A stretch of 64,000 nt of DNA. Source: Escherichia phage vB_EcoP_DE5. Shown here piece after piece: positions 2,821-62,154 of this stretch; positions within the stretch are counted from its first letter, which is position 1, and every line of letters begins with the position of its first letter. The stretch lies in sequence record MW741821.1. One strand, given 5' to 3'. A program made the translations under genes and the position numbers. The notes below the pieces were generated by a model. That model saw only the letters and a program-made list of their open reading frames with translations. It was not told the DNA's origin and ran no database searches.

Positions 2821-3105
2821 TCAACCTTTTGGGAATGGCATCAAAAATTCCATAGCAGATTTAATCTCATTATTGATTCGTGAATCACGATAAGAGATAA
2901 ACTTACCTTTGCTATCACGTAACATCACATGGGTTCTGGCTGTTTTGTGAGGGAGCAATGTGATACTAGTTGGAATAGCATCAACCCCTACAGCGTATTT
3001 GTCAATAGTCTTACTTTCAGCCAACAGATAAGACCAAGTACGCGGTTTCTGCTCCGGGCGGTTAGGGTATGTGTCCCGAATTTGAACCATAGCTAACTTA
3101 TTCAT
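2821..3105 (-). CDS. hypothetical protein (paralog pair with 3107-3361)
   Basis: 94 aa; shares KTARTxVxLR...GKFISY...PFPKG with neighbour. Confidence 0.5.
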   Translation of the reverse strand: MNKLAMVQIRDTYPNRPEQKPRTWSYLLAESKTIDKYAVGVDAIPTSITLLPHKTARTHVMLRDSKGKFISYRDSRINNEIKSAMEFLMPFPKG

Positions 3106-3106
3106 A

Positions 3107-3361
3107 TTAAACTCCTTTAGGGAATGGGATGAGATTTTCTACTGCAACACGGAAAGATTTTTCTACGTCTTTGTTTTTATAAGAAATGAATTTACCATCA
3201 GCACCACGAAGGATTACATTAGTGCGAGCTGTTTTTGGGTTAATCTCAATCATCCGTTCGATGATCTTGTTTGATTTGTTGTGGTGGTTAGTGAAAGTCC
3301 ACTTAACAATCTTGCCATCTCTGGTTACATCAAAAATATTTACGATTTTTACAATAGACAT
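3107..3361 (-). CDS. hypothetical protein (paralog pair with 2821-3105)
   Basis: 84 aa; same conserved motifs as neighbour. Confidence 0.5.
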   Translation of the reverse strand: MSIVKIVNIFDVTRDGKIVKWTFTNHHNKSNKIIERMIEINPKTARTNVILRGADGKFISYKNKDVEKSFRVAVENLIPFPKGV

Positions 3362-3393
3362 ATTTATTACCTAAGAAGTTTTAATTTGGTTTA

Positions 3394-3428
3394 TATAAAA
3401 GAAAAGGCCACCTGATTAGGCAGCCTTT
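3394..3428 (-). terminator. Rho-independent terminator (minus strand)
   Basis: Minus-strand RNA hairpin GGCUGCC-loop-GGUGGCC followed by U-rich tract; same hairpin type as 28770-28803. Confidence 0.55.
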
Positions 3429-3431
3429 GTT

Positions 3432-3725
3432 CTAGAGACGAAGCCAAGTTTGATAGTCAGCTTCAGTGTAATGATTGTTTCGAGAGTTGTTTTTCATTTC
3501 CTTGAGAGTGGCTCTCAGGTCGATGTTATGCTCTCTCCTTGTTCTATTCGGGTCTGTATCTTCTAATAGATGGGAGTGATCACTACAAGAGTAGTGCTTA
3601 TAGTGGTCCCTATATCCTCTACTTGGAGAATACTTGGTCATTAAAGTTGCAACTCTTTTTACACCCTCTGCTTTACAGAATTTACAATAAGTGTGAATTG
3701 TACATCTTTTTGTTTCTGCTGACAC
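3432..3725 (-). CDS. Cys/His-rich small protein (possible HNH-like nuclease)
   Basis: 97 aa with CKFCK and HYKHYSCSDHSH clusters. Confidence 0.35.
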   Translation of the reverse strand: MSAETKRCTIHTYCKFCKAEGVKRVATLMTKYSPSRGYRDHYKHYSCSDHSHLLEDTDPNRTRREHNIDLRATLKEMKNNSRNNHYTEADYQTWLRL

Positions 3726-3735
3726 TATAACCTCT

Positions 3736-4050
3736 TTATGAGCTTAAAGCTCCTTTGCGTGCTCCAGCTGCTTTTCCAGCTCGATCACCACTTTTGCCGC
3801 CGTTTGAACGGTTTGAGCTGACTGATTCAACACGTAAGTTGCTTGACGCATTAGAGCCTCCAGACTTGACAGCTCGTTTGTGTCCAACATCTTTACCTCT
3901 GACAGCAGCTTTTCCATCGCGCTTTTCAACGATGCGACGTGCACGGTGGCGCTGAGCATCTCCGCTCTTGCTCCCAACGCCTGTCTCACCACGGGCAATT
4001 GCGGTACGTCTTTCTTGTGCATAATCTCTCTTTCCTACATGATCTGCCAT
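3736..4050 (-). CDS. hypothetical basic Gly/Arg/Lys-rich protein
   Basis: 104 aa; strong AAGGAG SD 8 nt upstream of ATG; an alternative overlapping frame 3744-4022 cannot be excluded. Confidence 0.35.
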   Translation of the reverse strand: MADHVGKRDYAQERRTAIARGETGVGSKSGDAQRHRARRIVEKRDGKAAVRGKDVGHKRAVKSGGSNASSNLRVESVSSNRSNGGKSGDRAGKAAGARKGALSS

Positions 4051-4106
4051 TTAAAACTCCTTAATATATCAGTGTACACTAAGGAGTATACATTATAAGT
4101 TACTGT

Positions 4107-4844
4107 TTAAGCTTTCTTTTCCATTGCTTTAACAATCGCCTTACAGAAACCAGAACGAACAATATCATCTGATTCACCATCTACAATCTCAGCAAACTCA
4201 TACAGATCATGTTCATCAATAAAGTTAGTAGCCCAAGTAAGACCACTCTCACGACCACGCATATCATGCTGGTTAGTATCGCCCATGCAGAACAGCTGAG
4301 AGGTTTCTCCCAATCGAGTCATGATCGAGAAGGCTTCATCTTTAGTGGTGTTCTGGAACTCATCAACAATAACAATAGCATCATTGAAAGAACGACCACG
4401 GAGATATTCCAGAGGTACGAACTCAATGTTACTGTTACCGAGCTGGCATTCATAGAACCCCTTACCATATCGCTGAGTAATAACATCAATGATAGGCATC
4501 AGGTAAGGTTCAAACTTCTCGCGCATTCCTCCCGGAAGTAACCCAAGGGAGTTGCCCATGCCAACCGAAGGGCGACTCAGAATGATCTTCTGAATCTTAC
4601 CACTTTTCAGTGCATCAATAACCGTGGAAGTGATTACAAAGGTCTTACCACAGCCCGCAGGAGCGTCTGTGAACACAACTTGTTTAGTCTTAATAGCATT
4701 GAGTAGCTCAGACTGAAACTGGTTCTGAGGGACTACAGGCTTTGCTAAAACCACCTCTTCATACTCTCGCTTACCCTTACGAGTAACAAGAGCTTCCCGA
4801 CGAAGGTCTTTCCGTGATTCTTTCCGTGATTGACGACGACTCAT
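4107..4844 (-). CDS. phoH: PhoH-like ATPase
   Basis: 245 aa; Walker A-like APAGCGKTF, Walker B-like IVDEFQN; typical PhoH length. Confidence 0.85.
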   Translation of the reverse strand: MSRRQSRKESRKDLRREALVTRKGKREYEEVVLAKPVVPQNQFQSELLNAIKTKQVVFTDAPAGCGKTFVITSTVIDALKSGKIQKIILSRPSVGMGNSLGLLPGGMREKFEPYLMPIIDVITQRYGKGFYECQLGNSNIEFVPLEYLRGRSFNDAIVIVDEFQNTTKDEAFSIMTRLGETSQLFCMGDTNQHDMRGRESGLTWATNFIDEHDLYEFAEIVDGESDDIVRSGFCKAIVKAMEKKA

Positions 4845-5038
4845 TTACGCTCTCCAATTTCTTCGTAATGACACTCAGTAGTTAAGCAGTCTTTACAGAT
4901 TGCTGTATAAACCCTGACGTTAGTAAATCGTTTGTTCTTCCCTTTGGTTGGAGAGCCTTTGGCAAGCTCTCTGATAACCTTGTTACTTAAATGAAGGTTT
5001 GTTCCTTCACATTTAGAGCACTTCACCACAATGTCCAT
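4841..5038 (-). CDS. small zinc-ribbon protein
   Basis: 65 aa; CSKCEG...CKDC; start/stop overlap with phoH. Confidence 0.45.
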   Translation of the reverse strand: MDIVVKCSKCEGTNLHLSNKVIRELAKGSPTKGKNKRFTNVRVYTAICKDCLTTECHYEEIGERK

Positions 5039-5939: not shown

Positions 5940-5951
5940 AAGGAATTCCTG

Positions 5952-6334: not shown

Positions 6335-6335
6335 T

Positions 6336-7007: not shown

Positions 7008-7283
7008 TTACTTATTGCTCAGGGCTGTGTCCAAAAATGCTTTCAGGTTTGCTTCAGTCTGCATACCGGAGAGACTGTAGTGTGCACCACTATTACGGTC
7101 AGGTACAACAAAAGCAGGGATGCTTCGTACACCATACTTAACAGCTTGTTCACGACCATCACCTTCAAGGATGTTAATCTCTTCCACTTCTACATCAAAC
7201 TCCTTAACAACCTTCTCAAAGGTAGGAGCCATTGCTTTACATGGAGCACACTGATCACTATAAAACTTAATTACTTTAGACAT
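7008..7283 (-). CDS. thioredoxin-like protein
   Basis: 91 aa with CAPC active-site-like motif. Confidence 0.7.
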   Translation of the reverse strand: MSKVIKFYSDQCAPCKAMAPTFEKVVKEFDVEVEEINILEGDGREQAVKYGVRSIPAFVVPDRNSGAHYSLSGMQTEANLKAFLDTALSNK

Positions 7284-7291
7284 GTAAATCC

Positions 7292-7471
7292 TTATGCAGT
7301 CAGGAGGTGAAGCAGGAATGGGATAACAACAGCTACGATAACCATGATGGTTGATGCTGTTTGAATCTCACCTTTCTTATCAGGAGTTTCTTCAATAAGC
7401 TTACCAGAAGCCCAATAAATACCACCACCAATAAAGATAGCCCAAATACCCCATACGATTGCTGATAACAT
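7292..7471 (-). CDS. small membrane protein
   Basis: 59 aa hand-translated (MLSAIVWGIWAIFIGGGIYW...), two hydrophobic segments; below track cutoff. Confidence 0.4.
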   Translation of the reverse strand: MLSAIVWGIWAIFIGGGIYWASGKLIEETPDKKGEIQTASTIMVIVAVVIPFLLHLLTA

Positions 7472-7532
7472 ATATCTATATCCTTATAAATAAGTTCGCC
7501 CCACCTCGGGTTAGGAGACAGGGCGGAGGTTT

Positions 7533-8453: not shown

Positions 8454-8465
8454 TCTATATACATT
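8454..8465 (-). promoter_or_regulatory. putative phage-specific promoter element (AAATGTATATAG)
   Basis: Near-match to the TAATGTATATAGG motif recurring upstream of plus-strand genes. Confidence 0.35.
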
Positions 8466-8490
8466 TGAGAGTTATCATATCTACTACCAA

Positions 8491-8700
8491 TCAGTAGTAA
8501 ATTACTTTAGACATAAAAGAACCAGTGTTAGGGTCTTCATACCAGCGATGTATGTCAGCGCTTTTTACTATTGTGCCCAGAGTCTTCAACTGTTTCTTAG
8601 CAATACGAGCCTCTTTGCGAGTGTCAAACAATTTGATGTTATCTTTTCTCATGTGTTGCTCAAGATCCCAAACAACATGAATAGCCCACATCTTTTTCAT
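8491..8700 (-). CDS. hypothetical protein (paralog triplet member)
   Basis: 69 aa; tandem with two similar-sized ORFs, abutting start/stop, shared C-terminal Y(Y). Confidence 0.5.
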   Translation of the reverse strand: MKKMWAIHVVWDLEQHMRKDNIKLFDTRKEARIAKKQLKTLGTIVKSADIHRWYEDPNTGSFMSKVIYY

Positions 8701-8909
8701 TAGTAATGTACCTTTCCGCTGATATAAACACGACCAGAAGAATACTCTTTGGCCTTATGGATACTGATACTGTTGACCACGTCACCAGTAAGCATAGTCT
8801 TTTTAAAATCTCGAGCTTGTTGGCGAGTGGGTAGTGCAGTCATAGTCATACCGCCTGATGCCCACTTAATCTTTGCTAACCAAATTTTTCTCATAGTGAT
8901 TGGTCTCAT
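8700..8909 (-). CDS. hypothetical protein (paralog triplet member)
   Basis: 69 aa; same pattern. Confidence 0.5.
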   Translation of the reverse strand: MRPITMRKIWLAKIKWASGGMTMTALPTRQQARDFKKTMLTGDVVNSISIHKAKEYSSGRVYISGKVHY

Positions 8910-9106
8910 TAGTAATAAACCTTACTGTTGGCAAGAAAAGCACCTTCGCTATTCACAATAGCTTTCCCCAACGTAACCTTGCTGAGTCTAAAAGTAGACT
9001 TGTATTGGTTTTTGACCCTACGGGCGTGCTCTCGAGTATTAACAAAATCTACAGCTACTAACTCTCCAGTCGTGTTATCATGTACACGAACAATCCACTT
9101 TTTCAT
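8909..9106 (-). CDS. hypothetical protein (paralog triplet member)
   Basis: 65 aa; same pattern. Confidence 0.5.
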   Translation of the reverse strand: MKKWIVRVHDNTTGELVAVDFVNTREHARRVKNQYKSTFRLSKVTLGKAIVNSEGAFLANSKVYY

Positions 9107-24601: not shown

Positions 24602-24856
24602 CTACGAAGTTAAGATGATTTCAGCCTTAATAAACTTCTCACCAACAACCATATCACCAGAGATGACACGTAGTTCTCCAGTGCCTAGGTTAACAGCTCC
24701 AGCAGGTTGACAACCCCTGCTTTTAGCTGTCATCATATAAACCTTTTGATTTTGGCACTCTTGGAGAGTGAACACATCTGACATATTTAGATCTCTGACG
24801 CGGAGGATTTTTTCCTCTTTGTCTTTAACTTTAATGTTAATAATGCTCATATGCAC
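24602..24856 (-). CDS. small protein, paralog family member
   Basis: 84 aa; tandem array, N-terminal K-rich segment followed by L..L..GDVF-like motif. Confidence 0.5.
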   Translation of the reverse strand: MHMSIINIKVKDKEEKILRVRDLNMSDVFTLQECQNQKVYMMTAKSRGCQPAGAVNLGTGELRVISGDMVVGEKFIKAEIILTS

Positions 24857-25101
24857 TACTCCTGAACCACTGACATACGAATCATTTCTACCTGATCATC
24901 AAGACCTTTAACAGATAACATACCTGTGGAAAGGTTTACCACAGGAACCCAACCACTGGCTATACGGATGTTACCAGAAGCATTTTCAACCCTCATGTAA
25001 TACTGAGGAGAGGCACTTCCGTTCTGAACCACGAAAGGGTTTCCGGGAATGATTGTTTCCAATCGTACCGTATTATCCTTTTTCTTTGGGATGATTTTCA
25101 T
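24856..25101 (-). CDS. small protein, paralog family member
   Basis: 81 aa; MKIIPKKKDNTVRLETIIPGNPF. Confidence 0.5.
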   Translation of the reverse strand: MKIIPKKKDNTVRLETIIPGNPFVVQNGSASPQYYMRVENASGNIRIASGWVPVVNLSTGMLSVKGLDDQVEMIRMSVVQE

Positions 25102-25349
25102 TGCGTATTATCCACCAAAAGTTCTGCTGATACAGGAACAACTCGGCACCAGATAGAAGGTGCTGTTACGTTACCATCGGATAGACGAAGAGTAATTGTT
25201 CGATCAGAGTTAACGGTTACATTAGGACTTTCAGACACAGACCCTTTAACATAGAGAGTAGCACTCTCAGGGAATTTAAACACTGCTCCGCTGGGGAGGG
25301 AGTTGAGATCAATCGTGGTCACTTCTTCTTTCTTGTGGGTAATCTTCAT
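25098..25349 (-). CDS. small protein, paralog family member
   Basis: 83 aa; MKITHKKEEVTTIDLNSLPSGAVF. Confidence 0.5.
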   Translation of the reverse strand: MKITHKKEEVTTIDLNSLPSGAVFKFPESATLYVKGSVSESPNVTVNSDRTITLRLSDGNVTAPSIWCRVVPVSAELLVDNTQ

Positions 25350-25600
25350 TTAGAATCCTTAATAACGTTAGCTTCAACCTTAACAGGAATAACAGAGATG
25401 CCCTCAACGGGGCCACTTAAGTGTCCATCTTCCAGTCTGACACACACGACTCGATCTCGTGCAACTTCTACCCAATTAGTAGATGCCGCAGTACAGACCA
25501 TATGAATTGGACCGTTCTCTTCCAGCCGGAAGGTATCGCCCTTCTTCAGAGTGTGGAGTTTCACAGTCTTGATAGTTTTGTTCAATTCGTTAACTTTCAT
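25346..25600 (-). CDS. small protein, paralog family member
   Basis: 84 aa; MKVNELNKTIKTVKLHTLKKGDTF. Confidence 0.5.
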   Translation of the reverse strand: MKVNELNKTIKTVKLHTLKKGDTFRLEENGPIHMVCTAASTNWVEVARDRVVCVRLEDGHLSGPVEGISVIPVKVEANVIKDSK

Positions 25601-25608
25601 ATTGATTC

Positions 25609-25920
25609 CTATTTAAGTTTGAGGCTAATGTTAAGGTGCATACATGCTCTGTTCTGTACAGCAGCATAACTTCTACCGAGCATGTCAGCCATTCTCTGAA
25701 TAGACATGAACCCAGCATTACGGATAAGGAACTGGTCCTCTTCTTCAGACCATTTAACTCGGATTGAAGCTCTTGATATGCCGAATTTAGTGCAAGCTGT
25801 GTTAACAGCATTCTCCGTTACATTCATAATCTGAGCTACTTCTTGAACCGAGTACTCTTTGATTAGTCTCCGAAGATTTTCAATCTGCATCGGAGTCCAT
25901 ATAGTTCTTCGTGCTTTCAT
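25609..25920 (-). CDS. DNA-binding protein with two tandem Myb/SANT-like helix-turn-helix repeats
   Basis: 103 aa; two W-[TS]-x-E-E-D...L repeats (RRTIWTPMQIENLRRL... and VKWSEEEDQFLIRNAG...). Confidence 0.5.
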   Translation of the reverse strand: MKARRTIWTPMQIENLRRLIKEYSVQEVAQIMNVTENAVNTACTKFGISRASIRVKWSEEEDQFLIRNAGFMSIQRMADMLGRSYAAVQNRACMHLNISLKLK

Positions 25921-26415
25921 ACATCCTCCAATTAATTGTTAAAACTATCAGGGGAGAACACTAGCTCTGGGCCACGCTGTAGATATTGGCCTACCTTCCA
26001 CAGCTAATCAGCTAATATACTCCCCTAATAGTTTATGAATAGGGGGAGGGGACGAATCCTCCCTTATCCTATTAGTTAATATTGCATGTAAGATCTAACA
26101 ATCGGTTGCCTTTGTAGGAATAAGCGTAAAGCCAATCCAGCACTAAACTCCCGCCCCCTTAGTGGGCTGGGTTATTAAAGGGTAACGCCCTTATGGGCTA
26201 GTTACATGAATGTTAGTTTGATAGGAGATCTGAAGTCCTATCTCAAAGGACTCTCGTAAGAATCCTTCACGATATTACTTATTCATCTCTCGTCGGCTAT
26301 CTCTCCAAGCCAACCAAGTGTAGGTTTTCAGTTCTTCAAAGTCTTCTGGAGAGAATAGATACTCTTTGAAGGTGTTCCCAAACCACTCTAAAAATTCTTC
26401 AGTCATAAGATTCTC

Positions 26416-26589
26416 TTAACAAGATTGGTCACACGGCTGATCACCACATGTTTTACAGATCACTGGTGAGTAACTACAGGCAGGATAAACAGACACCCCA
26501 TCAAACGTCTCACATCCACAATCAGGACATGTACCGTTGGATTCCATGTCATCATCGTCATCTACTTCACCGCCACCAAAACAACTCAT
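26416..26589 (-). CDS. small acidic Cys-rich protein
   Basis: 57 aa hand-translated (MSCFGGGEVDDDDDMESNGTCPDCGC...), AAGGAG SD; below track cutoff. Confidence 0.4.
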   Translation of the reverse strand: MSCFGGGEVDDDDDMESNGTCPDCGCETFDGVSVYPACSYSPVICKTCGDQPCDQSC

Positions 26590-26598
26590 ACAGGCTCC

Positions 26599-26820
26599 TT
26601 AGTAAACTAAACCTGTAGCCTTTGCATCAGGCTGAGGGACTACTTTTGCACTAGGGCGATAGCCATCCACTGAGCCGTTCCAAAGATTGACACAGGTGAT
26701 ATATCCATCGTCTATGATGTCTGTTTTAATCCAGAAGTGTTTATCATGACCAAAAATACTTCCGTTTGGCAGCGTGGACAATTCAACAGTTTTAAGTGAC
26801 TGCTTAGAGTCTAGTTTCAT
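26599..26820 (-). CDS. small protein, paralog family member
   Basis: 73 aa; MKLDSKQSLKTVELSTLPNGSIF. Confidence 0.5.
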   Translation of the reverse strand: MKLDSKQSLKTVELSTLPNGSIFGHDKHFWIKTDIIDDGYITCVNLWNGSVDGYRPSAKVVPQPDAKATGLVY

Positions 26821-26829
26821 ATAAGTTCC

Positions 26830-27027
26830 TTAATATACCAAACCATGTAAAAGAAACATCCTCTTTGTAAGCTCTGCTTTAGCTCTGTAATAAGCCTTAG
26901 AACCTAACAGGCGGCTCTTAACAAAGAACTTAATGTCATTGCTAACATCTTGTATTAAACGCTCCTGTACAGTTTCTGAGGAGTTATTAATCGAATCAAT
27001 TAACACCTTTGTAGATGTGTAATTCAT
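26830..27027 (-). CDS. hypothetical protein
   Basis: Track ORF 26830-27219 trimmed to internal Met with AAGGAG SD (65 aa). Confidence 0.4.
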   Translation of the reverse strand: MNYTSTKVLIDSINNSSETVQERLIQDVSNDIKFFVKSRLLGSKAYYRAKAELTKRMFLLHGLVY

Positions 27028-27028
27028 A

Positions 27029-27328
27029 TCACCACTCCTTACCGGTTGTAATCGTAGAGCCACCACACCACAATGCTGTATCAATAACAACATTATCCGG
27101 TGTAGACTTCTCTTCGTTGATAGAAGGGTTAGCATTAGAACAGGTTGCTCCGTTCCATCGCATATCAATTTCACCAGAAGGAATCTTCTCACCCTTATGC
27201 CAGCGAGAAACACAAACACCTTCCACTGCTACTGCACACCATCCATCAGGACGGCTCTGTACGCAGCCTGTAAGGGCTATGCAGACAAGGAAGATACAGA
27301 TTAAGGATATTACACCACCCCAACTCAT
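27029..27328 (-). CDS. predicted lipoprotein
   Basis: 99 aa; signal peptide with lipobox ALTGC; AGGAGGT SD. Confidence 0.6.
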   Translation of the reverse strand: MSWGGVISLICIFLVCIALTGCVQSRPDGWCAVAVEGVCVSRWHKGEKIPSGEIDMRWNGATCSNANPSINEEKSTPDNVVIDTALWCGGSTITTGKEW

Positions 27329-27348
27329 AATTACCTCCTATTAGATTT

Positions 27349-27440
27349 GGTGGACTATCTGGAATCGAACCAGAAGCTCACTAAGAAAGTAATTCCCACT
27401 GTTATAAAAGCACTTGCCTCAACAGGGATACACTAACTCT
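27349..27440 (-). other. tRNA-like element (T-arm present; full cloverleaf not resolved)
   Basis: Minus-strand UCUGG-UUCGAUU-CCAGA T-arm followed by UAGUCCA-CCA, but no matching 5' acceptor strand found by hand. Confidence 0.3.
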
Positions 27441-27468
27441 GGTGCCGCACCCATACTAGCCCTAAATG

Positions 27469-27544
27469 TGGTGCGCCCTACAGGACTCGAACCTGTAACC
27501 AATAGCTTAGAAGGCTACTGCTCTATCCATTGAGCTAAGAGCGC
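27469..27544 (-). tRNA. tRNA-Arg (anticodon TCT)
   Basis: Hand-folded: acceptor GCGCTCT/AGGGCGC, D-arm GCTC-AATGGATA-GAGC, anticodon stem GTAGC/GCTAT with loop CTTCTAA, T-arm ACAGG-TTCGAGT-CCTGT, discriminator A, encoded CCA. Confidence 0.85.
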
Positions 27545-27719
27545 AGAATTATTTAGATCATATCTCGCTTGGTGATATGACCACATGTTTTACATCGAAG
27601 TATATAACGAGTACCTGTGTCTTCTATTTGACCAATCTCATTATATATGTGTAAACGAACTTCTTTTATTGTCTCCCAATCATGCAGATGGAATAGACGT
27701 TTAAACCACTTGAACATAA

Positions 27720-27953
27720 TTACACCACCTCAACGAGAGATGTTTTCCATGCAAACAGAGGTCCATTATCGTTAAGATAAACAGCTCCTCCCGTCTCGAA
27801 CGGAGTCCCATAAGGAAGTGCCCAAGCATACCCACGAATTTCTGGCTTATGGGTAAACCCATATACCTCGCCGTTGCTATCAGTTGCTAAATATCTTATA
27901 GAGCTGTCCACTTTAACAACTTCGCCAAAATATTTAACCTCTTTTCCTTTCAT
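27720..27953 (-). CDS. hypothetical protein
   Basis: Track ORF trimmed to MKGKEVKYF Met with GAGG SD. Confidence 0.45.
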   Translation of the reverse strand: MKGKEVKYFGEVVKVDSSIRYLATDSNGEVYGFTHKPEIRGYAWALPYGTPFETGGAVYLNDNGPLFAWKTSLVEVV

Positions 27954-27960
27954 ATTAACC

Positions 27961-28212
27961 TCAAGCACAAGCAGGGAGTGTGATGATTTTATGCTTACCA
28001 TCAAATTCTCCAAATAAACCTAAGAATGTGGGACTGTAAGTTCCAGTACAAACAAACTCATCAAACAATGCGTTATAACTAGGCTTGATCTTCCAAGCCC
28101 ATACATAACCCATCTTGTCAATTGCAATGTAACGAGTGTTCAGAGGAACAGTCATCATTATACCATCAACTTCGATCACTTTAGTGATTGGTGCAGCTTG
28201 GAAGTTTTTCAT
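27961..28212 (-). CDS. hypothetical protein
   Basis: 83 aa ORF. Confidence 0.45.
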   Translation of the reverse strand: MKNFQAAPITKVIEVDGIMMTVPLNTRYIAIDKMGYVWAWKIKPSYNALFDEFVCTGTYSPTFLGLFGEFDGKHKIITLPACA

Positions 28213-28385
28213 ACTTTACCTTTGATAAAAATGTCATTACCACAGACACAGCATGAACGAACAACAGTAGCGCCACGCTGAACAATACGAACCTCTTCCT
28301 TAACCAGACTAATACGAGCACCGCAGCAAGGAGAGTTGACATAAGAGTAACCAGCTTGCGTATGTTTGATTATTTGCTTAGACAT
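28209..28385 (-). CDS. small zinc-ribbon protein
   Basis: 58 aa hand-translated (…SPCCGAR…SCCVCGN…); ATGA overlap with downstream gene. Confidence 0.4.
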   Translation of the reverse strand: MSKQIIKHTQAGYSYVNSPCCGARISLVKEEVRIVQRGATVVRSCCVCGNDIFIKGKV

Positions 28386-28731
28386 TTGATTCTAGATCTC
28401 TTAGTTGTTCAGCCAATTGTTCGCATTCATTAACGCAGAACTCTTCTGTTCTTGGTATCCCGTTAGGGTTGAACCGTGTCTTATCACCTGCATGGGCACA
28501 ATCAAATCCGATTGTATCTAAACCACCCATCTCTTCAAGGGTGTCTTGCCATGTGACACCACCATGAACACTTACATAACAAACCTCTTCCTTTCCGTTA
28601 TATCCGGTGAAGTTTTTATGTTTTAAGCTGTCTGGTAGCTCTACATATCCACAAAAATGGGAGTCGTTCATGTGCATAATCACAGCACGAAGACCTGATT
28701 TAGTGACCCAATCTTTAACCATGCGTCTCAT
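28378..28731 (-). CDS. hypothetical protein
   Basis: Track ORF trimmed to MRRMVKDW Met with GGTG SD (117 aa). Confidence 0.45.
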   Translation of the reverse strand: MRRMVKDWVTKSGLRAVIMHMNDSHFCGYVELPDSLKHKNFTGYNGKEEVCYVSVHGGVTWQDTLEEMGGLDTIGFDCAHAGDKTRFNPNGIPRTEEFCVNECEQLAEQLRDLESNV

Positions 28732-28769
28732 ATAAGCACCTCTTGTTAGTTTAAGTAAGAGTTGTCCCT

Positions 28770-28803
28770 TAATTAAAACAACAAAGGCCACCCGAAGGCA
28801 GCC
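28770..28803 (-). terminator. Rho-independent terminator (possibly bidirectional)
   Basis: Hairpin GGCUGCC-UUCG-GGUGGCC with U-rich tracts on both sides. Confidence 0.55.
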
Positions 28804-29311
28804 TTTTATTTATTAACTGTTATACGTCCAATTACCTTGCTTGTTACGGATGGCTGACATTGCATGAATCCAAAAGCCTTCCAGTTTCAGAGCACCATTA
28901 GCTACTGCATCCATACGTTCAGGGCGGTTCATACGTTTGGTTGATACTTTCATACCTATCTCTCTTTGTTAGTGGAGGCATTATTGCCAGTTGATATAAG
29001 GGATAGCCCTAGTCAGTAGACTAACCCTGACCGCGTACTCATTGCCGACCTTCTCTGCCTAAGAGTTCAGGTTCTAGAGCTATCTCTTATTCCAACTGGT
29101 GAAGACTCCCTACCCCTAGGAAGTCTCCTGAATCCCAAACCAATACGTACCCCTACATATCGGAAAGTCTTTCGAAAATTAACAGGTTTTAGTCTAACAC
29201 CGGATGTTCGAGCAAGCTCTCCCTAGCGGTGTGGCATATGCCTGAATTAATAAGTTAATGAGGAACACCCTCACATAGCCCTCTGATAAACACAAGGGCT
29301 ATAAGTCGGTG

Positions 29312-29530
29312 TTACTTTTGGGATAAACACAGATCAGGTCGTGGCATAACAGTGGTTGATAGACCGAAGACTTCAACAGAACCACTGCTCAAGTTAGCAG
29401 CCTTACACAAACCATCAGGGGTTTTATCTTCTAGCATCAGCCAGAAACGTTTATCATAAGAGAAAACATCACCACCTTTAACGTCCTCTGCATTTGCATA
29501 TTTAGGATAATCAACTACTTTAATTTCCAT
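29312..29530 (-). CDS. small protein, paralog family member
   Basis: 72 aa; ...AEDVKGGDVFSYDKRFW. Confidence 0.5.
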   Translation of the reverse strand: MEIKVVDYPKYANAEDVKGGDVFSYDKRFWLMLEDKTPDGLCKAANLSSGSVEVFGLSTTVMPRPDLCLSQK

Positions 29531-29540
29531 CTAATTGCCC

Positions 29541-29759
29541 TTATTGATATATAGAAAGGTGGATAAGTTTATTAACATGAGCGAAGTTAGGAAGGATTTG
29601 CATCTCATTGTTGAAGATATTAAAACAACGAACCCCGCCCTCTACAGCATAAGCAGATTTCTGAAACAGACTGCCTCCCCACACAAATACATCATGTGTT
29701 TCAAGAGATCGTAACTGAACAGCCTCGTCAACAACCTTCTTTTCAATGTTCATATTCAC
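29541..29759 (-). CDS. small protein, paralog family member
   Basis: 72 aa; ...LRSLETHDVF. Confidence 0.5.
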   Translation of the reverse strand: MNMNIEKKVVDEAVQLRSLETHDVFVWGGSLFQKSAYAVEGGVRCFNIFNNEMQILPNFAHVNKLIHLSIYQ

Positions 29760-30007
29760 TTCCGATTGGTAATTACTGCATCATGGATAACTGAAACAGG
29801 TAAGTTTGAATCTAGCTTCATTACTTGATTGGTGCTTAAACTGAGCACTACACAACCATTCCGAAGATCAGTCTCTGACACATGTGGTGTATATAACTGA
29901 ACGATCATGTAATAATCAATACATGTTGCCTTAACTTGGAATACATCACCAAGTTTCAAATCACCCACACACAATTCTTTAGCTTTCATCTCAAGATCAA
30001 TCTTCAT
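29756..30007 (-). CDS. small protein, paralog family member
   Basis: 83 aa; ...VGDLKLGDVFQV. Confidence 0.5.
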   Translation of the reverse strand: MKIDLEMKAKELCVGDLKLGDVFQVKATCIDYYMIVQLYTPHVSETDLRNGCVVLSLSTNQVMKLDSNLPVSVIHDAVITNRK

Positions 30008-30233
30008 CTTTAGCCTCTATGTTGGTTATGTGAAGATCACTACGTACTTGGCAGACTTCATCCCGTTTAAAAGGCATGAGCTTTCCAGTTACCACATCAA
30101 CACAGTTGACATAATTGTCTGCGTACAATGTGTCGGTTCTGATGTAAAGGGATTCTTTACGCTCAAACAGAACCCCCGGCTTCATGTTATTTAAGCGAAG
30201 CATTGTACGATCGGATTTAATATTAACTTTCAT
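29997..30233 (-). CDS. small protein, paralog family member
   Basis: 78 aa; ...LNNMKPGVLFER. Confidence 0.5.
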   Translation of the reverse strand: MKVNIKSDRTMLRLNNMKPGVLFERKESLYIRTDTLYADNYVNCVDVVTGKLMPFKRDEVCQVRSDLHITNIEAKDED

Positions 30234-30235
30234 CT

Positions 30236-30493
30236 TTAATCCACCTTATTGGTAAGTCGAGCATTATCAACTACCTGAACAACAGTATCTTTTCTCAACA
30301 TTGTTATTCTATCCGAAGTGAGATCTACTACTACTCTTTCGTCAGGCTTCCAACTAGCTGAATAAACGGTTGAGGAATCTAGCTTTACTGTAAGATATAT
30401 TTTATTTTTAGGTGGAACAGTTTCAAAAACACTCCCCACCTTCAGGTCTTTCAGTTGCTTGACTACAGGGGCTGTATTAATATCATGCTTCAT
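30236..30493 (-). CDS. small protein, paralog family member
   Basis: Trimmed to MKHDINT Met with AGGAG SD; ...LKDLKVGSVFETV. Confidence 0.5.
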   Translation of the reverse strand: MKHDINTAPVVKQLKDLKVGSVFETVPPKNKIYLTVKLDSSTVYSASWKPDERVVVDLTSDRITMLRKDTVVQVVDNARLTNKVD

Positions 30494-30779
30494 TGTTAAT
30501 CTCCTGCTGTTTAGCAATAGCCACTCGCAAGTCTTCATTAGCACGAGCAAGGCGTAACACTTCGTGGTTGAGGTTCTGAAGACGCTTGTTTCTGTCCTCT
30601 ACTTGCATAATAAGATCATTAAGTGTTACTTTAACTTTCTCATTATACATCTCATCCACTCGAACTAGGGATTTATACATTCTCTCCCAGCTTGCTGCTT
30701 TGTTTCTGAGAATAATAAATCCTAGAACGCTGATAGTTAAACAGCTTACAAAAAGGAATTTATATACTTCTAAAGTCAT
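30483..30779 (-). CDS. membrane-anchored coiled-coil protein
   Basis: 98 aa; N-terminal hydrophobic helix then heptad-like charged region. Confidence 0.45.
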   Translation of the reverse strand: MTLEVYKFLFVSCLTISVLGFIILRNKAASWERMYKSLVRVDEMYNEKVKVTLNDLIMQVEDRNKRLQNLNHEVLRLARANEDLRVAIAKQQEINNEA

Positions 30780-46772: not shown

Positions 46773-46781
46773 TAATGTATA
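46773..46781 (+). promoter_or_regulatory. putative phage-specific promoter element TAATGTATA
   Basis: Exact 9-mer about 42 nt upstream of ATG at 46815; same 9-mer at 63844-63852. Confidence 0.45.
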
Positions 46782-54234: not shown

Positions 54235-54243
54235 GGAGGAATT

Positions 54244-57200: not shown

Positions 57201-57261
57201 TAACAGTAATGCTGCTATCAATGGTTTAACGATAGAGTTTGCTGTTGGCGGGCGGAGATAA
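54244..57261 (+). CDS. large structural protein with tandem Ig-like (Big_2) domains
   Basis: 1005 aa; several repeats of the ...TxTATxxPxxATNxxxxWxSSNxxIATV... pattern. Confidence 0.55.
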   Translation: MALYPIKSLGAVGVIADQAPTDLAPNAFTNAINARFVEQRVFKTGGNAPLSYVDEDKDLTPLSFVSMPFDYYSAGNSFLVVGTNKKLYKLTDESLTDISRKVATVTKKASASIKIYPVVSQIVPKESTISMNFNQTKNLEVSLLPADANNTDLIWEVSNSAYGSITVDPSDSKLATLTSFEKEGNLVVTISTANESVVAQIAVNIIDGDSGIFLSQDTVTIRKGGTTTLTAVTGKTPVTWSSSNASIVSVTPNANSLTAVITANGEGNVTITADNGTKTASCEIVSIPQIDSISLSQSDVTVSRGSQYILTATLSPANAPNQNITWTSSNPNIATVSGTSTQGTINALLAGFTEITATTEEGNRVAVCTVRVDLAGRTMRTSAMAFAAPVSESVETQEEEVVTPPESEETVYFAEPTSGIDTSGMYEGNNFYDYSNVNDIEGFARASLLATPLSSVTLDVVSASLDVGEEIVITATASPEGDYSYQWSVDKTGYVSTTSVTGKSIKLVALRKGEINVTCTVSQMTQKDYDAFDDYPWYHAVISNCAVATTHYETPQVKEFESEYFVDLPGWGEQTVVDNDGNPSVKKFNWKCERVRSFNNRLFALNMREANASGVTTNYPLRLRWSNFANENKAPTLWDDFAYDRVVSSDLASNIVGQTQALENGYAGYIDLADSNGSLIDILPLKDYLFVYTEFETYIGSPTNNTYQPLMFKKLFNDSGILAPECVVEVEGSHFVVTQNDVILHNGATKKSIASNRVKNMLINEVCLVNPLATRVHLHQDKKEVWVLYVGPGEPKESFACTKAAVWNYEFDTWSFRTIPYAQCIGLVDPPVLERGPIWSDFQEITWDDPSIKELVWRKDATNFRQRVTIVGSFLKGFYQVDVGALDYFYDRLNDVVIEKPLEMRLERTGIDFDNVTNEWNQKHINRFRPQTTGSGTYIFEAGGSQFSNEYGHPHTSKTYTIGVDRHVSVRLNHPYLFYNVIDNDVNSNAAINGLTIEFAVGGRR

Positions 57262-57267
57262 CAACAA

Positions 57268-57294
57268 GGGGCTTCGTGCCCCTTTTATTGTTTT
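57268..57294 (+). terminator. Rho-independent terminator
   Basis: Hairpin GGGGC-UUCGU-GCCCC followed by UUUUAUUGUUUU. Confidence 0.6.
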
Positions 57295-57304
57295 GGAGGA
57301 ACTT

Positions 57305-58273
57305 ATGGGTGCAGGTGGTTTTCGTAAGAACACTGGTCGCAACAACACCACACTCCCGTACAACGTTGGGTTTCTCAATAATGTACAGGACACAGAAACA
57401 TATAACGTAGCAGTGTATGATGAATTACAAAAAGTTAGCACAGCTACTAACCAAATGTTCCAAGCTATAGATGAAATTCACGAAGAGATTGATGTTCGTA
57501 TTAAAGCTCTTAATGCAATGAATCTTCAATTTGATGAGCTTGAGAATAGAATTACTACAGAGATAGAAACAGCTATTGCAGATATCCAAACCCAGATGGG
57601 GAACCTGTCCACTGAGGACATTTGGGATAATTCTGTTCAACCCCCTGTGAAGCTAGAAAGCACTGTATCTGGTTTTAAGACCAGCATCGAAGGTAACACA
57701 ACTAAAATTCAGACAGTAGAAGGTATTGTTAACGATCAAGGTCAAGAGATTGCTCTTGTTCAGACAGAACTGCAAAATATCAACGGAAGCCTTTCTCAGT
57801 ATATGAAACTCTCTGAGTATGAAGCTACGTGGGGTGTTAACTCTACAGTCAACGGAAGATATGCTGGGGTCAAGTTAACTAACAACGGAACAAACAGTCA
57901 ATTCCAAGTAACAGCTAACAAATTTATTGTTGGTGATGGCAGCTCTGGGAATACCCCCTTCGTATTTGAGGGTGGGCGAGCTAGGATGGAATTCGCTGAC
58001 ATAAAGAACGTCAACATCACAACTGCTCAGATTGCCAACGCTAGGATCCAATGGGCACAGATTGATAACGTATCTATCTCCAATGCTCAGATTCAGAACT
58101 TATCAGCGGATAAAATCACTGCTGGTTCTATGTGGGGTTCTAACTGGAGACTTACTGTTGGTGGTGATTTTGTTATGGGTGGTACAGGTGGTTCTCAGTT
58201 GTGGATGAATGGTAATAGAATAGATTTTTATGATGGGAGTGGAACTCTTCGCATAAGAATAGGGAGTTGGTAA
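57305..58273 (+). CDS. tail fibre-like protein
   Basis: Track ORF trimmed to MGAGGF Met with GGAGGAA SD; ITTAQIANARIQWAQIDNVSISNAQIQNLSADKITAG repeats. Confidence 0.5.
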   Translation: MGAGGFRKNTGRNNTTLPYNVGFLNNVQDTETYNVAVYDELQKVSTATNQMFQAIDEIHEEIDVRIKALNAMNLQFDELENRITTEIETAIADIQTQMGNLSTEDIWDNSVQPPVKLESTVSGFKTSIEGNTTKIQTVEGIVNDQGQEIALVQTELQNINGSLSQYMKLSEYEATWGVNSTVNGRYAGVKLTNNGTNSQFQVTANKFIVGDGSSGNTPFVFEGGRARMEFADIKNVNITTAQIANARIQWAQIDNVSISNAQIQNLSADKITAGSMWGSNWRLTVGGDFVMGGTGGSQLWMNGNRIDFYDGSGTLRIRIGSW

Positions 58274-58274
58274 C

Positions 58275-59309
58275 ATGGCATATGGAATATGGACACGCCC
58301 GGTTGGTCCGGGTCCAGCGGCACCTGCTGATATTTACATCGATAGTGGTAGCACATTCCCTCAACTCAGAAATAGAGTCAGTGGGAATTTCTCTTTTAGT
58401 GGAAATACCTGTGACTTGCCTATAAGTGGTTGGGATGGTAGTGGTCAGATAGTTGTAGTTCCAACAGGGTCTGTTGTTTGGGAGAGATACATACCTCCTA
58501 ACGTAACGTCTGATGTGTATTGGATAACGGATATATCTGTTATTAATAACTCAACCTTCAGAGTTACTATGGACTATAATGTAAACGGTTGGGTATTTGA
58601 TATGGCTTTTAATGTGTATCAAATATGGCCTAGAGCTAACAGGAATTATGGAATCACATTCTCCAACTCTGCTGACTATTTCTCAATATCTGATTCTGGG
58701 GTTGTTGGTCAATGTATTTGGGCTTGGGAGGGTGACATAAATGGTTCTCTTCAAATACCAGATATTGGTGGTTTTGATATGAGCCGAGCAACTGTCTACG
58801 CGAATTGGAGTAACGGTGGAGCAGGGCTGCTATACAATCCATCCAATAGGGTTGTTTATGTGTACCAGAACAGGTCTCATGATAATGGTAACACAAACCA
58901 AACAGGATACATTGGTGGTGTTAGAATTGCCGTCTTCTGTGATGGTTCTGGAGTACCAACCCACAATGGTGGTTTAAATATCTTCTCTCCAAATGGGTCT
59001 CAGTGTGTATTTTCTACATATAGAACCCCTTTTAGTGTTGAGGGATTTATGCCTATGAGTGGCGGTAACACATCTCTGGCCTATCCAATGATACCACTAT
59101 CTTACGGAGCAGGAGCAATAAGAGGCAAGGCTAGTGGTTGGTATTTTCAACACACAAGATCTCACATGATGAATGGCTCTTCTTTCGGTACAGGTTTCGG
59201 AAGGATGATTTACTCTTGGAGTAGTCAATATGATTTAGGAGGGGGTGGTGCCCTCGGGTTAAGTATTCCAATATTAGATGCTAGAAAGATATTCAGGAGT
59301 ATACAATAA
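58275..59309 (+). CDS. virion structural protein
   Basis: 344 aa in structural operon. Confidence 0.45.
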   Translation: MAYGIWTRPVGPGPAAPADIYIDSGSTFPQLRNRVSGNFSFSGNTCDLPISGWDGSGQIVVVPTGSVVWERYIPPNVTSDVYWITDISVINNSTFRVTMDYNVNGWVFDMAFNVYQIWPRANRNYGITFSNSADYFSISDSGVVGQCIWAWEGDINGSLQIPDIGGFDMSRATVYANWSNGGAGLLYNPSNRVVYVYQNRSHDNGNTNQTGYIGGVRIAVFCDGSGVPTHNGGLNIFSPNGSQCVFSTYRTPFSVEGFMPMSGGNTSLAYPMIPLSYGAGAIRGKASGWYFQHTRSHMMNGSSFGTGFGRMIYSWSSQYDLGGGGALGLSIPILDARKIFRSIQ

Positions 59310-59318
59310 GGAGATATT

Positions 59319-60101
59319 ATGGCAATCAGAATGGGTATCGAAGAACTAGACCCAATGGTACAGCAAGCTTCAAAGAAGTATGGGATTCCTGCTGCTTTGA
59401 TTCATGCTGTCATCCAAAGAGAGTCCAGTGGTCGTCCTACAGTGGCCTCTGGAACTGGTCCTGTAGGTTTAATGCAGATCAGTAAAGGGTTGGCTAAAGA
59501 TTACGGTTACAAACTAGAAGATAGACTTGACCCAGCAAAGAATATTGATATGGGCGCTCGTTACATAAGAGATAACTTAAAAGCTTTTAATGGTGATGTT
59601 AAGAAAGCAATGGTTGGTTATTCAGAAGGTATCGGTGGAGCTAAGCAAATGTTCGCTGGTAAAAAGGGGTTTACTCCACAAGCTCTTGACTCCATGAACA
59701 ATAAACACTTTCTTCCTTTCTATGGTGATGCAGCTTCTCAGATTGCTAACCCTGTTGGAGCTTTGCAAGCTGTTCAACCAGTCAATCAGTTTAGTCCTGA
59801 CTTGTTAGATAGAGAGAAGGCCGCACAAGCTCCAACTCAGGCAGAGATTGCTGCTTCTAAGACAGGTGCTTTAGGTGGAAATCCAGTAGAGTTTTACTCT
59901 GATGAAGTGCAGGAAGGCGAAAATCAGAAACCTCAACAGAACTTTGGTAATGCAGTATTAGGGGTAGCTGCTATGCTTGCTGGTAAACCTCCCACTTCTC
60001 AAACAGTTCAGAGGGCAAGTGCACCACATGCAGCAGGTTCTCAGTACAGTCCACAAACACAAGCAGTGCTCAGACGTCTGGCTAGCATTGGTGTAAAGTA
60101 A
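59319..60101 (+). CDS. lytic transglycosylase (SLT domain), probably virion-associated
   Basis: 260 aa; IQRESSGRP (catalytic E-S), GLMQI motifs. Confidence 0.7.
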   Translation: MAIRMGIEELDPMVQQASKKYGIPAALIHAVIQRESSGRPTVASGTGPVGLMQISKGLAKDYGYKLEDRLDPAKNIDMGARYIRDNLKAFNGDVKKAMVGYSEGIGGAKQMFAGKKGFTPQALDSMNNKHFLPFYGDAASQIANPVGALQAVQPVNQFSPDLLDREKAAQAPTQAEIAASKTGALGGNPVEFYSDEVQEGENQKPQQNFGNAVLGVAAMLAGKPPTSQTVQRASAPHAAGSQYSPQTQAVLRRLASIGVK

Positions 60102-60120
60102 TAATCTTTAAGGAGGACTT

Positions 60121-61173
60121 ATGTCTTTATTTGGAAAATCAGCTTCTAGCAAAACCACAGTGGCCCCTTCCTCTCAGGTTGATGCCCTGCTGAAGCAGAT
60201 TGTTGCTAATGCTCAGAATATGCAGAACAACGATCCGGGATTCATCTCCCAACAACTGGCTGGGTTTAATGGCAACCAACAGGGTGCTCTGAACAACTTA
60301 GCAGCTTCTACTACTCAGAAGCAATTGGCTGATATGTACACGCCTCGTACACAGCAAGGGTTGGACCAATTAAACTCTCTTGCACAGCAGTATCAGAATA
60401 TTGTCAATGGTGGTGGTCTAACTGCTGATGGTGTTAATAACTTTAGTAAAGGATTGAATAACTCAGCTCTTGCTCAAGCGACTAGTAAGGCAGCTTCCAA
60501 TGTATCCCTCGGAAATGGTTCTGATTCAGGCTCTCTCCGTAGAGCTGCTGCTCAAGGTGCTGCTCTGAACAGTGCTAATACAAACTTAGCTCGTACTATC
60601 AGTGGCAAGAATATGGGAATCAGTGCTCTTCAACAAGACCAAAACTTCCAGAGGGGCTTACTTGGTGCTCAGTCAGGATTGGCTGGACAGAATCTCAATC
60701 TTGGTGCTCAAGGTGTTCAGGCAACTCAACAAGCTATCCAGAATCAACTCATGGCTGGTAATCTACAACAGCAACAAGCCCAAGCTCAAGCTGATATTAA
60801 TTGGCAGAACGCTATTGGCTCTCAACAGTATGGGTGGAATCAGCTTAACAACCAACTTAATGTATTAAATAGTGTAAGCCCAATGGCTGGGTACACGATT
60901 AAGAATGCTGCTCCGGGGGTTAATACTGGACAACAGCTCCTAGGTGCTGGTATCACTGGATTAGGTATTGCAGGTCGTATGGGTGCTTTCTCTCCTAATC
61001 AACAGACTCAGAATGCTTGGAGTTCCTATAACAACTCAGGTGGGCAATCTGGAATGGCTGGTCCTATGATTGGTGGTTCTAATCTTTCTCAACAGAAAGG
61101 TCAGTCTAACTGGTTATCCACAGCAGGTAGTAATATCTTAGGTGGTGTCTTAGGGGCATTTGGAGCAAACTAA
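60121..61173 (+). CDS. Gln/Asn/Gly-rich internal virion protein (paralog of 61186-62154)
   Basis: 350 aa; shared N-terminal F.GNQ..ALNNLA.S and Gly-rich hydrophobic C-terminus. Confidence 0.5.
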   Translation: MSLFGKSASSKTTVAPSSQVDALLKQIVANAQNMQNNDPGFISQQLAGFNGNQQGALNNLAASTTQKQLADMYTPRTQQGLDQLNSLAQQYQNIVNGGGLTADGVNNFSKGLNNSALAQATSKAASNVSLGNGSDSGSLRRAAAQGAALNSANTNLARTISGKNMGISALQQDQNFQRGLLGAQSGLAGQNLNLGAQGVQATQQAIQNQLMAGNLQQQQAQAQADINWQNAIGSQQYGWNQLNNQLNVLNSVSPMAGYTIKNAAPGVNTGQQLLGAGITGLGIAGRMGAFSPNQQTQNAWSSYNNSGGQSGMAGPMIGGSNLSQQKGQSNWLSTAGSNILGGVLGAFGAN

Positions 61174-61185
61174 AGGAGATTTGAT

Positions 61186-62154
61186 ATGGGACTTTTCGGA
61201 GGCGGGGGTAGTAAAACTACTTCCCAAATGATTCGCCCTGAATACATTCAACAGTATATTGACCAGCTTAACCAACAGATTGGTAATACTAGTTCAGGGG
61301 ATTATGTTTATCGTGACAATGTAGGGTTTAATAACAATCAGACAGAGGCACTTAACAACCTAGCACAATCTGGCGCTCTAGGTACTCTCTCACAGCAGTA
61401 TATGGATGCAGCAGGTCAAGGCTTGGGTTATCTAGATAATGCCTATAAAGGTTATCAGAGCCTCTCTGGACAAGGTGGGATTACTGGAGAGCAGATTGGT
61501 GCTCTCGCTGGTCAACTGTATGATGATGACGCTGTGCAAGCAGCCATTACAGCTAATAATGAACAGGTTCAACAGAACTTGGCACGTAATGCTCTTCCTC
61601 AGTTAGCTCAACAGTTTGCTGGTCAACAAGGTTCAGGTGCTCGTATGGCTAAGTCTTTTGCCCAAGGTGATGCTCTGAATCAGATGCAAGGCCAAGCAAC
61701 AGATATTACCAATAGTGCCTATAACTCGGCTATTAGCCAAGCTGAAAGCATCCTCTCTGGTAATAGACAGAATCAGGCAGCTGCTCTCTCTGGTCTTTCT
61801 AATATTGGTTCTAACCTTTCTAACCTAGGTCAGCAGGGTGCTAATTTGTCTCAACAGCAAATAATGAATCAATGGAATGCAGGGTTGCAGCAACAACAGC
61901 AACAACAGAATGAATATGATAATGCCTACCAGAATGCTCAGAACGCAGCTAATTGGGGATGGCAAGATATCAATAACCAACTCGGTGCAGCAGGTGTACT
62001 TAACGGTGCTCTCGGACAAACTACAACTACTAAAACATCTGGTGGCAAAGGTGGTTTCCTTGGTGGAGCTATGAGTGGTGCAGCAGCTGGCTCTTCCTTT
62101 GGACCTTGGGGTGCATTAGCTGGGGGTGTAATCGGTGGGTTGGCTAGTACTTAA
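61186..62154 (+). CDS. Gln/Asn/Gly-rich internal virion protein (paralog of 60121-61173)
   Basis: 322 aa; same architecture. Confidence 0.5.
   Translation: MGLFGGGGSKTTSQMIRPEYIQQYIDQLNQQIGNTSSGDYVYRDNVGFNNNQTEALNNLAQSGALGTLSQQYMDAAGQGLGYLDNAYKGYQSLSGQGGITGEQIGALAGQLYDDDAVQAAITANNEQVQQNLARNALPQLAQQFAGQQGSGARMAKSFAQGDALNQMQGQATDITNSAYNSAISQAESILSGNRQNQAAALSGLSNIGSNLSNLGQQGANLSQQQIMNQWNAGLQQQQQQQNEYDNAYQNAQNAANWGWQDINNQLGAAGVLNGALGQTTTTKTSGGKGGFLGGAMSGAAAGSSFGPWGALAGGVIGGLAST

Follow-up and report, generated by a model that had tools for sequence, protein, structure and literature searches.

Tandem paralogs of probably ancient origin in the Kuravirus Escherichia phage vB_EcoP_DE5: an ejection-protein pair and two families of small basic proteins

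We analysed local gene duplication in a 64,000-nucleotide stretch of Escherichia phage vB_EcoP_DE5 (sequence record MW741821.1), called the window hereafter. A previous reading made from the sequence alone (the sequence-only reading) had proposed three tandem paralog sets besides a ten-member family: a pair of genes sharing a KTART motif (2821-3361), a triplet encoding proteins of 65-69 amino acids (aa) (8491-9106) and a pair of Gln/Asn/Gly-rich virion proteins (60121-61173 and 61186-62154). All three sets were found to be true tandem paralogs. The evidence as a whole is very probably best explained by old tandem duplicates, fixed in the common ancestor of the Gordonclarkvirinae, which then diverged to 25-35% identity. 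Local duplication is thus real yet historical in this genome. The seven open reading frames (ORFs) of the three sets, all recovered at these positions and annotated as coding sequences in the phages Bas90 and phiEco32, are listed below with their isoelectric points (pI) and PHROG assignments, followed by the fourth family:

2821-3105, minus strand: KTART-motif family copy 1, 94 aa, pI 9.9, ortholog of phiEco32 gp56 (phrog_6814, E 6.7e-37)
3107-3361, minus strand: KTART-motif family copy 2, 84 aa, pI 10.1, ortholog of phiEco32 gp57 (phrog_6814, E 4.3e-36)
8491-8700, minus strand: triplet member A, 69 aa, pI 9.8, ortholog of phiEco32 gp69 (phrog_4939, E 1.7e-28)
8700-8909, minus strand: triplet member B, ortholog of gp70, pI 10.6, 69 aa long or, if started at the second ATG (8894), 64 aa (phrog_4939, E 1.2e-27)
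8909-9106, minus strand: triplet member C, 65 aa, pI 10.2, ortholog of phiEco32 gp71 (phrog_4939, E 2e-27)
60121-61173, plus strand: ejection protein of gp21 type, 350 aa, 35.8 kDa, pI 9.9, Gln+Asn+Gly content 40% (phrog_4287, E 1.4e-117, profile positions 1-392 of 392)
61186-62154, plus strand: ejection protein of gp22 type, 322 aa, 33.3 kDa, pI 4.3 (phrog_4287, E 3.5e-109, profile positions 1-321 of 392)
24602-30550, minus strand: fourth paralog family, nine members recovered by an iterative hidden Markov model (HMM) census and BLASTP links (the ten-member family of the sequence-only reading)

The window belongs to the genus Kuravirus, within the Gordonclarkvirinae, and represents an E. coli podophage of the phiEco32/SU10/Bas90 kind. 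Its first 12 kb, used as a query, matched Escherichia phage SkaterBoy_Bas90 with 96.1% DNA identity over 100% of the query, and SU10, phiEco32 and about 100 further E. coli/Shigella phages with 80-96% identity. Among the relatives with a taxonomy line, phiEco32 is the closest, and it is classified in Kuravirus. The early and middle (replication) genes occupy the minus strand as far as about 37.9 kb; beyond this point come the late structural genes, on the plus strand.

Paralogy was assessed with shuffle statistics and profiles, which were required since a plain all-versus-all BLASTP missed the triplet. Within each set, similarity was significantly above chance and composition, the A-C comparison alone being weak by itself, and all members of a set matched the same PHROG over the full length of the proteins. 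Background-level pairwise identity, which would have spoken against the sequence-only reading, was observed in none of the sets. A set was considered tandem when its genes were adjacent and on the same strand. This is the case for all three, with spacers of 1 nt in the KTART pair and 12 nt in the virion pair, and 1-nt overlaps in the triplet. The iterative HMM census of the 108 strand-consistent ORFs yielded four local paralog families and none further: the KTART pair, the small-protein triplet, the nine-member family and the virion pair, amounting to 16 ORFs and 9.3% of the coded residues. A six-frame scan of the window with HMMs run in --max mode detected no further member of the pair, triplet and virion-pair families. 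Two neighbouring genes of 344 aa (57239-58273 and 58275-59309, plus strand) were considered as an extra pair and rejected, being unrelated (Z -0.4; phrog_16534, tail fibre, versus phrog_1265). Because most dsDNA phage genomes are devoid of paralogs, according to a statement cited in PMC5694885, the four local families are a genuine feature of this genome. The idea of the sequence-only reading that local duplication recurs in this genome therefore holds for the number of families, but not as a process still at work, given the 25-35% identity between paralogs and the lack of DNA self-repeats.

Several observations date the duplications. Self-BLASTN of the whole window returned no repeat at E<1e-5, and BLASTN between paralogs retrieved short in-register remnants only: 57 nt at 68% identity over the KTART motif and 43 nt at 79% over the GFNxNQxxALNNLA motif. 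Orthologs from different genera share 46-99% identity, versus 25-35% for paralogs. The detailed comparison covered seven genomes; among the relatives, EP335 and KBNP1711 are Nieuwekanaalvirus, SU7 is a Suseptimavirus and Bas92 comes from a Kuravirus clade with reduced genomes of 67-69 kb (PMC11990801). The orthogroups are common to Kuravirus and Nieuwekanaalvirus, and two of the three are also present in Suseptimavirus. Genes of A, B and C type are each recognisable in phiEco32, KBNP1711 and EP335, and SU7 has the A and B types only. The gp21-type and gp22-type genes are both recognised, side by side, in three metagenome relatives (L004-L006) that are just 40-45% identical. Outside this group, the Grimontviridae phages Cronobacter A24 and Proteus P59 encode one ejection homolog of 410 aa, with no second copy among its neighbouring genes.

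Copy numbers in related phages, whose comparison the sequence-only reading had suggested, do vary. The triplet family counts 3 copies in Kuravirus, 2 in SU7, 3+1 in KBNP1711, 3 in EP335 and 1 in Bas92. The KTART family counts 2 copies in Kuravirus, SU7 and KBNP1711 and a single one, of gp57 type, in EP335 and Bas92. KTART copy 2 is accordingly kept in all the Gordonclarkvirinae genomes examined, and copy 1 was absent from EP335 and Bas92 in an HMM scan. The same kind of scan detected no ortholog of member C in SU7 or Bas92. Member B is the sole triplet member kept in Bas92, whose copy is 86% identical to that of the window. These differences, one to four copies for the triplet family and one or two for KTART, are better read as mainly losses, together with allele exchange, than as fresh duplications. 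The simplest history would comprise duplication in a phiEco32-like ancestor, divergence, occasional loss of small genes and strict retention of the ejection pair.

Not all members of an array followed the same path. In KBNP1711, A is 99% identical to the window and B 52%; in EP335, C is 91% identical and A 57%; the other triplet members of these two phages range from 48 to 57%. To judge from these mosaics, the array members have differing histories. KTART copy 1 is 91% identical to phiEco32 gp56, with a ratio of nonsynonymous to synonymous divergence (dN/dS) of 0.08. Copy 2 is 79% identical to its Bas90 counterpart and 67% to that of phiEco32, the neighbouring genes being 96-100% identical. 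Its dN/dS is 0.28-0.33 and its synonymous divergence (dS) reaches 0.64-0.67, versus 0.04-0.20 in neighbouring genes. Moreover, it is 100% identical to the record of an otherwise different phage. This pattern points to recombinational allele exchange, beyond fast protein evolution alone.

Other origins were weighed against old tandem duplication. The similarities could be artefacts of chance or composition, the small proteins being short and the virion pair of low complexity; the shuffle and profile tests have already refuted this explanation, which we regard as extremely improbable. Duplication could also be active and ongoing, for instance through recombination-prone replication, the copy-number differences then being recent gains. 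Four local families in 64 kb, one to four copies among relatives and an extra dispersed copy in KBNP1711 would fit such a process. However, no paralog pair keeps similarity at the DNA level, the paralogs are much further apart than orthologs from different genera, and the genomes with fewer copies either belong to the 67-69 kb reduced clade or are devoid of one recognisable orthogroup, a pattern expected of loss. Ongoing duplication is thus very unlikely.

A less remote alternative, although still an unlikely one, is that the neighbours are xenologs, a divergent homolog having been inserted beside the resident copy by illegitimate recombination. Such a capture has been invoked to explain why PhiGT1-like phages have dual tubeA genes (PMC10386132). 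The array members clearly move between lineages, as the mosaics of KBNP1711 and EP335 illustrate, and the several-fold excess of dS in KTART copy 2 over its neighbours and its identity with a gene of an otherwise different phage go in the same direction. It also weighs against our interpretation that duplication in situ is inseparable from side-by-side capture of a divergent homolog. Yet within each set the copies lie next to one another in a single operon and in one orientation, separated by 0-12 nt or overlapping through TAATG. No outside donor pool is evident, because the exhaustive KTART profile search and the word-indexed triplet search showed neither small family beyond the phiEco32-like phages, and the two distant KTART homologs whose context could be checked are syntenic. 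Finally, tandem duplication accounts more simply for four families in one genome.

The virion pair is the set to which a role can be assigned. Two further genes of the same block frame it:

59319-60101, plus strand: lytic transglycosylase ejection protein of SU10 gp20 type, first of the ejection block (phrog_12507, transglycosylase, E 3e-176)
62168-63823, plus strand: 551-aa ejection protein of SU10 gp23 type, following the paralog pair (phrog_12130)

The gene order is tail fibre genes, transglycosylase (SLT), paralog pair and 551-aa protein, which places the pair within the ejection block. The same order is found in L004-L006, where the genes syntenic with the transglycosylase carry an SLT Pfam domain and those syntenic with the gp23 type encode 563-577 aa. 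The proteins of the window are orthologs of gp21 and gp22 of SU10 and phiEco32, in the same order SLT - gp21 - gp22 - gp23 - gp24 and with no difference between the genes as such. Residues 1-227 of the gp22-type protein are 100% identical to the 'putative DNA injection protein' of SU10 and phiEco32. Consistently, the proteomic masses reported in SU10 are 35.9 kDa for gp21 and 33.3 kDa for the second protein of the pair (PMC4281155), compared with the 35.8 and 33.3 kDa computed here. SU10 gp23 is a virion-associated protein of 60 kDa (PMC4281155). The SU10 proteins gp20-24 are found in virions, but no longer once the genome has been released (PMC9509320; PMC4281155), and were assigned as ejection proteins extending the nozzle across the periplasm (PMC9509320). 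By orthology, from which the role is transferred, the Gln/Asn/Gly-rich pair of the window is SU10 gp21 and gp22, two of the five ejection proteins, in agreement with the virion location claimed by the sequence-only reading. According to the published experiments, gp21 and gp22 would be carried inside the head and driven out through the tail when infection begins.

The two proteins are collinear paralogs with opposite charges. The gp22 clade is acidic in 14/14 sequences (pI 4.1-5.2) and the gp21 clade is basic, with a median pI of 9.7 and 33 sequences out of 36 at or above pI 7.9. The C-termini of both proteins are conserved segments, rich in Gly/Ala and mildly hydrophobic; in that of gp22 (residues 290-317), the glycines are at positions 290-294-298-302-306 and 309-313-317, in an i,i+4 register. 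All close relatives examined have retained the two genes as neighbours. We infer from this strict co-retention and complementary charge that gp21 and gp22 have sub-functionalised and most likely assemble as a charge-complementary hetero-oligomer. The glycine pattern suggests that the C-terminal segments could form the membrane-facing part of a trans-envelope DNA conduit, which would also involve gp20 (the transglycosylase), gp23 and gp24. Three points weigh against this model: 3 of the 36 gp21-clade sequences are slightly acidic (pI 5.6-5.7); the C-terminal segments are mildly hydrophobic only, with a Kyte-Doolittle maximum of 0.9-1.2 over 19 residues, so that membrane insertion is no more than a possibility; and co-retention and opposite charge are the sole grounds for proposing the heteromer. 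In the metagenome relative L006, an Endonuclease_7 gene, of homing-endonuclease type, sits between the gp21-type and gp22-type genes (7109-7498).

The SU10 papers treat gp21 and gp22 as two of 'five types' of ejection protein, and in the portions of the SU10 paper text searched they are not mentioned as paralogs of opposite charge. Paralogous ejection proteins have a precedent in giant phages, with SPN3US gp53/gp54 and phiKZ gp93/94/95/162/163 (pfam12699; PMC5694885). The latter proteins show no sequence relationship to the pair of the window, which has no Pfam match. Besides, these giant phages are myoviruses, in which there is an inner body and protease processing takes place, whereas we deal here with a 77-kb podovirus, of which all close relatives examined keep exactly two copies. 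A functional analogy exists with T7 gp14/gp15/gp16 and P22 gp7/gp20/gp16, internal podovirus proteins that are the first to exit the head and that lengthen the short tail so that it spans the envelope. The likeness to T7 gp16 is that a lytic transglycosylase belongs to the ejection set in both cases. The T7 and P22 ejectosome systems are not known to hold a paralogous pair. A profile built from 50 members of the gp21/gp22 family and compared with all PDB chains gave no match at E<=2; its best match (E 2.5) was an unrelated calcium-channel subunit, and none of the 6 weak matches was a phage protein. As this profile detected no sequence relationship to solved ejectosome components, the comparison with T7 and P22 is one of analogy only.

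The five small proteins are all basic (pI 9.8-10.6). Their dN/dS values of 0.08-0.40 indicate that all five genes are genuine and constrained by purifying selection. They are full-length members of phrog_6814 and phrog_4939, which carry no annotation, although some GenBank records of their members read 'autotransporter adhesin' without support. This name is given to gp57 homologs in several records (e.g. NC_070989, NC_070984 and PP445229), and searches of Pfam, NCBIfam and folds lend it no support. More generally, none of the seven proteins of the three sets has a significant match in Pfam, NCBIfam or the PDB, and a BFVD structure search of the small proteins retrieved family members only, with no informative fold match. 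A kinship between the KTART and triplet families was rejected (hhalign probability 0.2%). The AlphaFold2 models are of good confidence: that of KTART copy 2 has a confidence score (pLDDT) of 81.6 and a beta-beta-alpha-beta-(beta)-alpha order, with a beta-sheet and two helices; that of member B has a pLDDT of 84.7 and a beta-beta-alpha-beta-beta order.

Both families are narrowly distributed. An exhaustive KTART profile search over 1.84 billion representatives found just 27 small relatives, counted as cluster representatives, those added being 79-103 aa long; three long matches (kinesin, DUF346-repeat and Big_7 proteins) were discarded as spurious motif matches. In the two distant KTART homologs with a readable context, the gene is single-copy and occupies the same slot: gp58-like .. 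KTART - gp54-like - DNA polymerase A. A scan of IMG/VR returned only four Kuravirus-type contigs, and a word-indexed search with the triplet retrieved only members from contigs of Kuravirus size and short fragments. Members A, B and C share 99, 86 and 89% identity with phiEco32 gp69, gp70 and gp71, respectively, and member A is also 99% identical to KBNP1711 ECBP3_0071. A fourth member of the family in KBNP1711, ECBP3_0064 (9282-9491; HMM E 6.7e-10), lies between the genes for thioredoxin and ThyX, about 2 kb away from the array, and is the only dispersed copy of the triplet family seen.

Genomic context is the best clue to the function of the small proteins. The relevant signals are:

4087-4095, minus strand: exact phi32_gp36 sigma promoter element TAATGTATA, preceding the gp58 homolog (motif match)
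3403-3428, minus strand: terminator-like hairpin formed by a stem of 11 pairs with a T run behind it, a short distance upstream of the KTART pair (from the sequence; a terminator is annotated at the equivalent place in SU7)
8458-8466, minus strand: AAATGTATA, agreeing with the gp36 promoter element at 8 of 9 positions, immediately past the end of the triplet and ahead of the gp68 homolog (motif match)

The element at 4087-4095 marks the head of a middle operon running from gp58 through the KTART pair to the DNA polymerase gene, the pair being located just upstream of the latter. Genes 58 and 68 of phiEco32 carry mapped gp36-dependent promoters and their cluster is of the middle class (PMC8948821). 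Exact copies of TAATGTATA number three, at 4087-4095 (minus), 46773-46781 (plus) and 63844-63852 (plus), each on the coding strand of its region. With at most one mismatch, 19 copies of the element were found for 20.8 expected; this count is not above chance, therefore only positionally sensible copies are credible. The triplet lies behind the dCTP deaminase gene: member C (dN/dS 0.19) begins right after the deaminase stop codon, with no gap, and TAATG stop/start overlaps join the triplet genes, member B overlapping on both sides. Since AAATGTATA stands directly after the triplet and before the gp68 homolog, the triplet closes the preceding dCTP-deaminase operon. The KTART pair and the triplet would thus be transcribed within middle operons, and the triplet would be translationally coupled to dCTP deaminase.

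From this operon context (gp36 promoters, DNA polymerase, dCTP deaminase), we favour putative accessory nucleic-acid-binding or replication-linked roles for the small proteins; modulation of host proteins, notably their inhibition, is the alternative. In the KTART copies, 16 Lys+Arg residues face 8-9 Asp+Glu residues. As natural isolates have from one to four copies, each extra copy is probably dispensable on its own, and individual alleles appear to have been swapped between lineages by recombination. The small phage inhibitors considered for comparison were the uracil-DNA glycosylase (UDG) inhibitor p56 of phi29/VMY22, T4 Dmd and T7 Gp2. Uracil-containing DNA in these phages was a speculation of Humolli et al., the BASEL authors (PMC11990801). 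A UDG inhibitor of p56 type is disfavoured: p56 has an acidic, DNA-mimicking surface and the KTART proteins are basic instead. A broader proposal, in which the gp56/57 and gp69-71 arrays are diversified inhibitors of host enzymes or defences of the p56/Dmd/Gp2 class and gp21/gp22 form an obligate charge-complementary heteromeric ejection channel, is doubtful as a whole.

Several features near the KTART pair were recorded in passing. A Cys/His-rich ORF of 97 aa (3432-3725, minus strand; phrog_9585), present in the window and Bas90 and absent from phiEco32 and SU7, forms an indel between gp58 and the KTART pair and is followed by the hairpin (3428-3403). The gp58 homolog (3736-4050, minus strand) is a very basic, G/A/R/K-rich protein of 104 aa. 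Nested within it in another frame is a 92-aa ORF (3744-4022, minus strand). The nested sequence is balanced and helix-like, and in 13/13 related loci, distant ones included, it remains open over exactly 279 nt. The main frame is far better conserved than the nested ORF and appears T-poor from its G/A/R/K-rich codons; the openness of the nested ORF may thus be compositional, or else this ORF may be an overlapping gene. Finally, the gp54 homolog (2235-2657, minus strand) and a nucleotidyltransferase-like gene (9650-11077, minus strand) diverge strongly between genera, as the paralogs do, with respectively 41% and 32% identity to SU7 for neighbours at 79-100%.

GenBank and PHROGs already list the genes and families described here, and the ejection role has been published before; we found no prior mention of these paralogs in the literature searched. 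What had gone unremarked is the paralogy of gp21 and gp22 with its conserved difference in charge, and the distribution of copy numbers of the small arrays among the relatives, a useful annotation rather than a discovery. It does not challenge current views of phage genome evolution, and its practical value is modest. The paralogy is worth recording in annotations, and gp57 homologs should no longer be labelled 'autotransporter adhesin'. For the unresolved ejection density of Kuravirus, the paralogy and opposite charge of gp21 and gp22 provide a modelling hypothesis, that of a heteromeric channel component containing a glycine zipper. As to the small-protein arrays, if they did encode inhibitors, duplication and allele swapping would widen their target range and could contribute to the unexplained resistance of Gordonclarkvirinae (BASEL isolates) to restriction-modification and other defences. 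Being conserved, probably dispensable as individual genes and mosaic in their alleles, they are candidates for knock-out in this defence-resisting group of phages.

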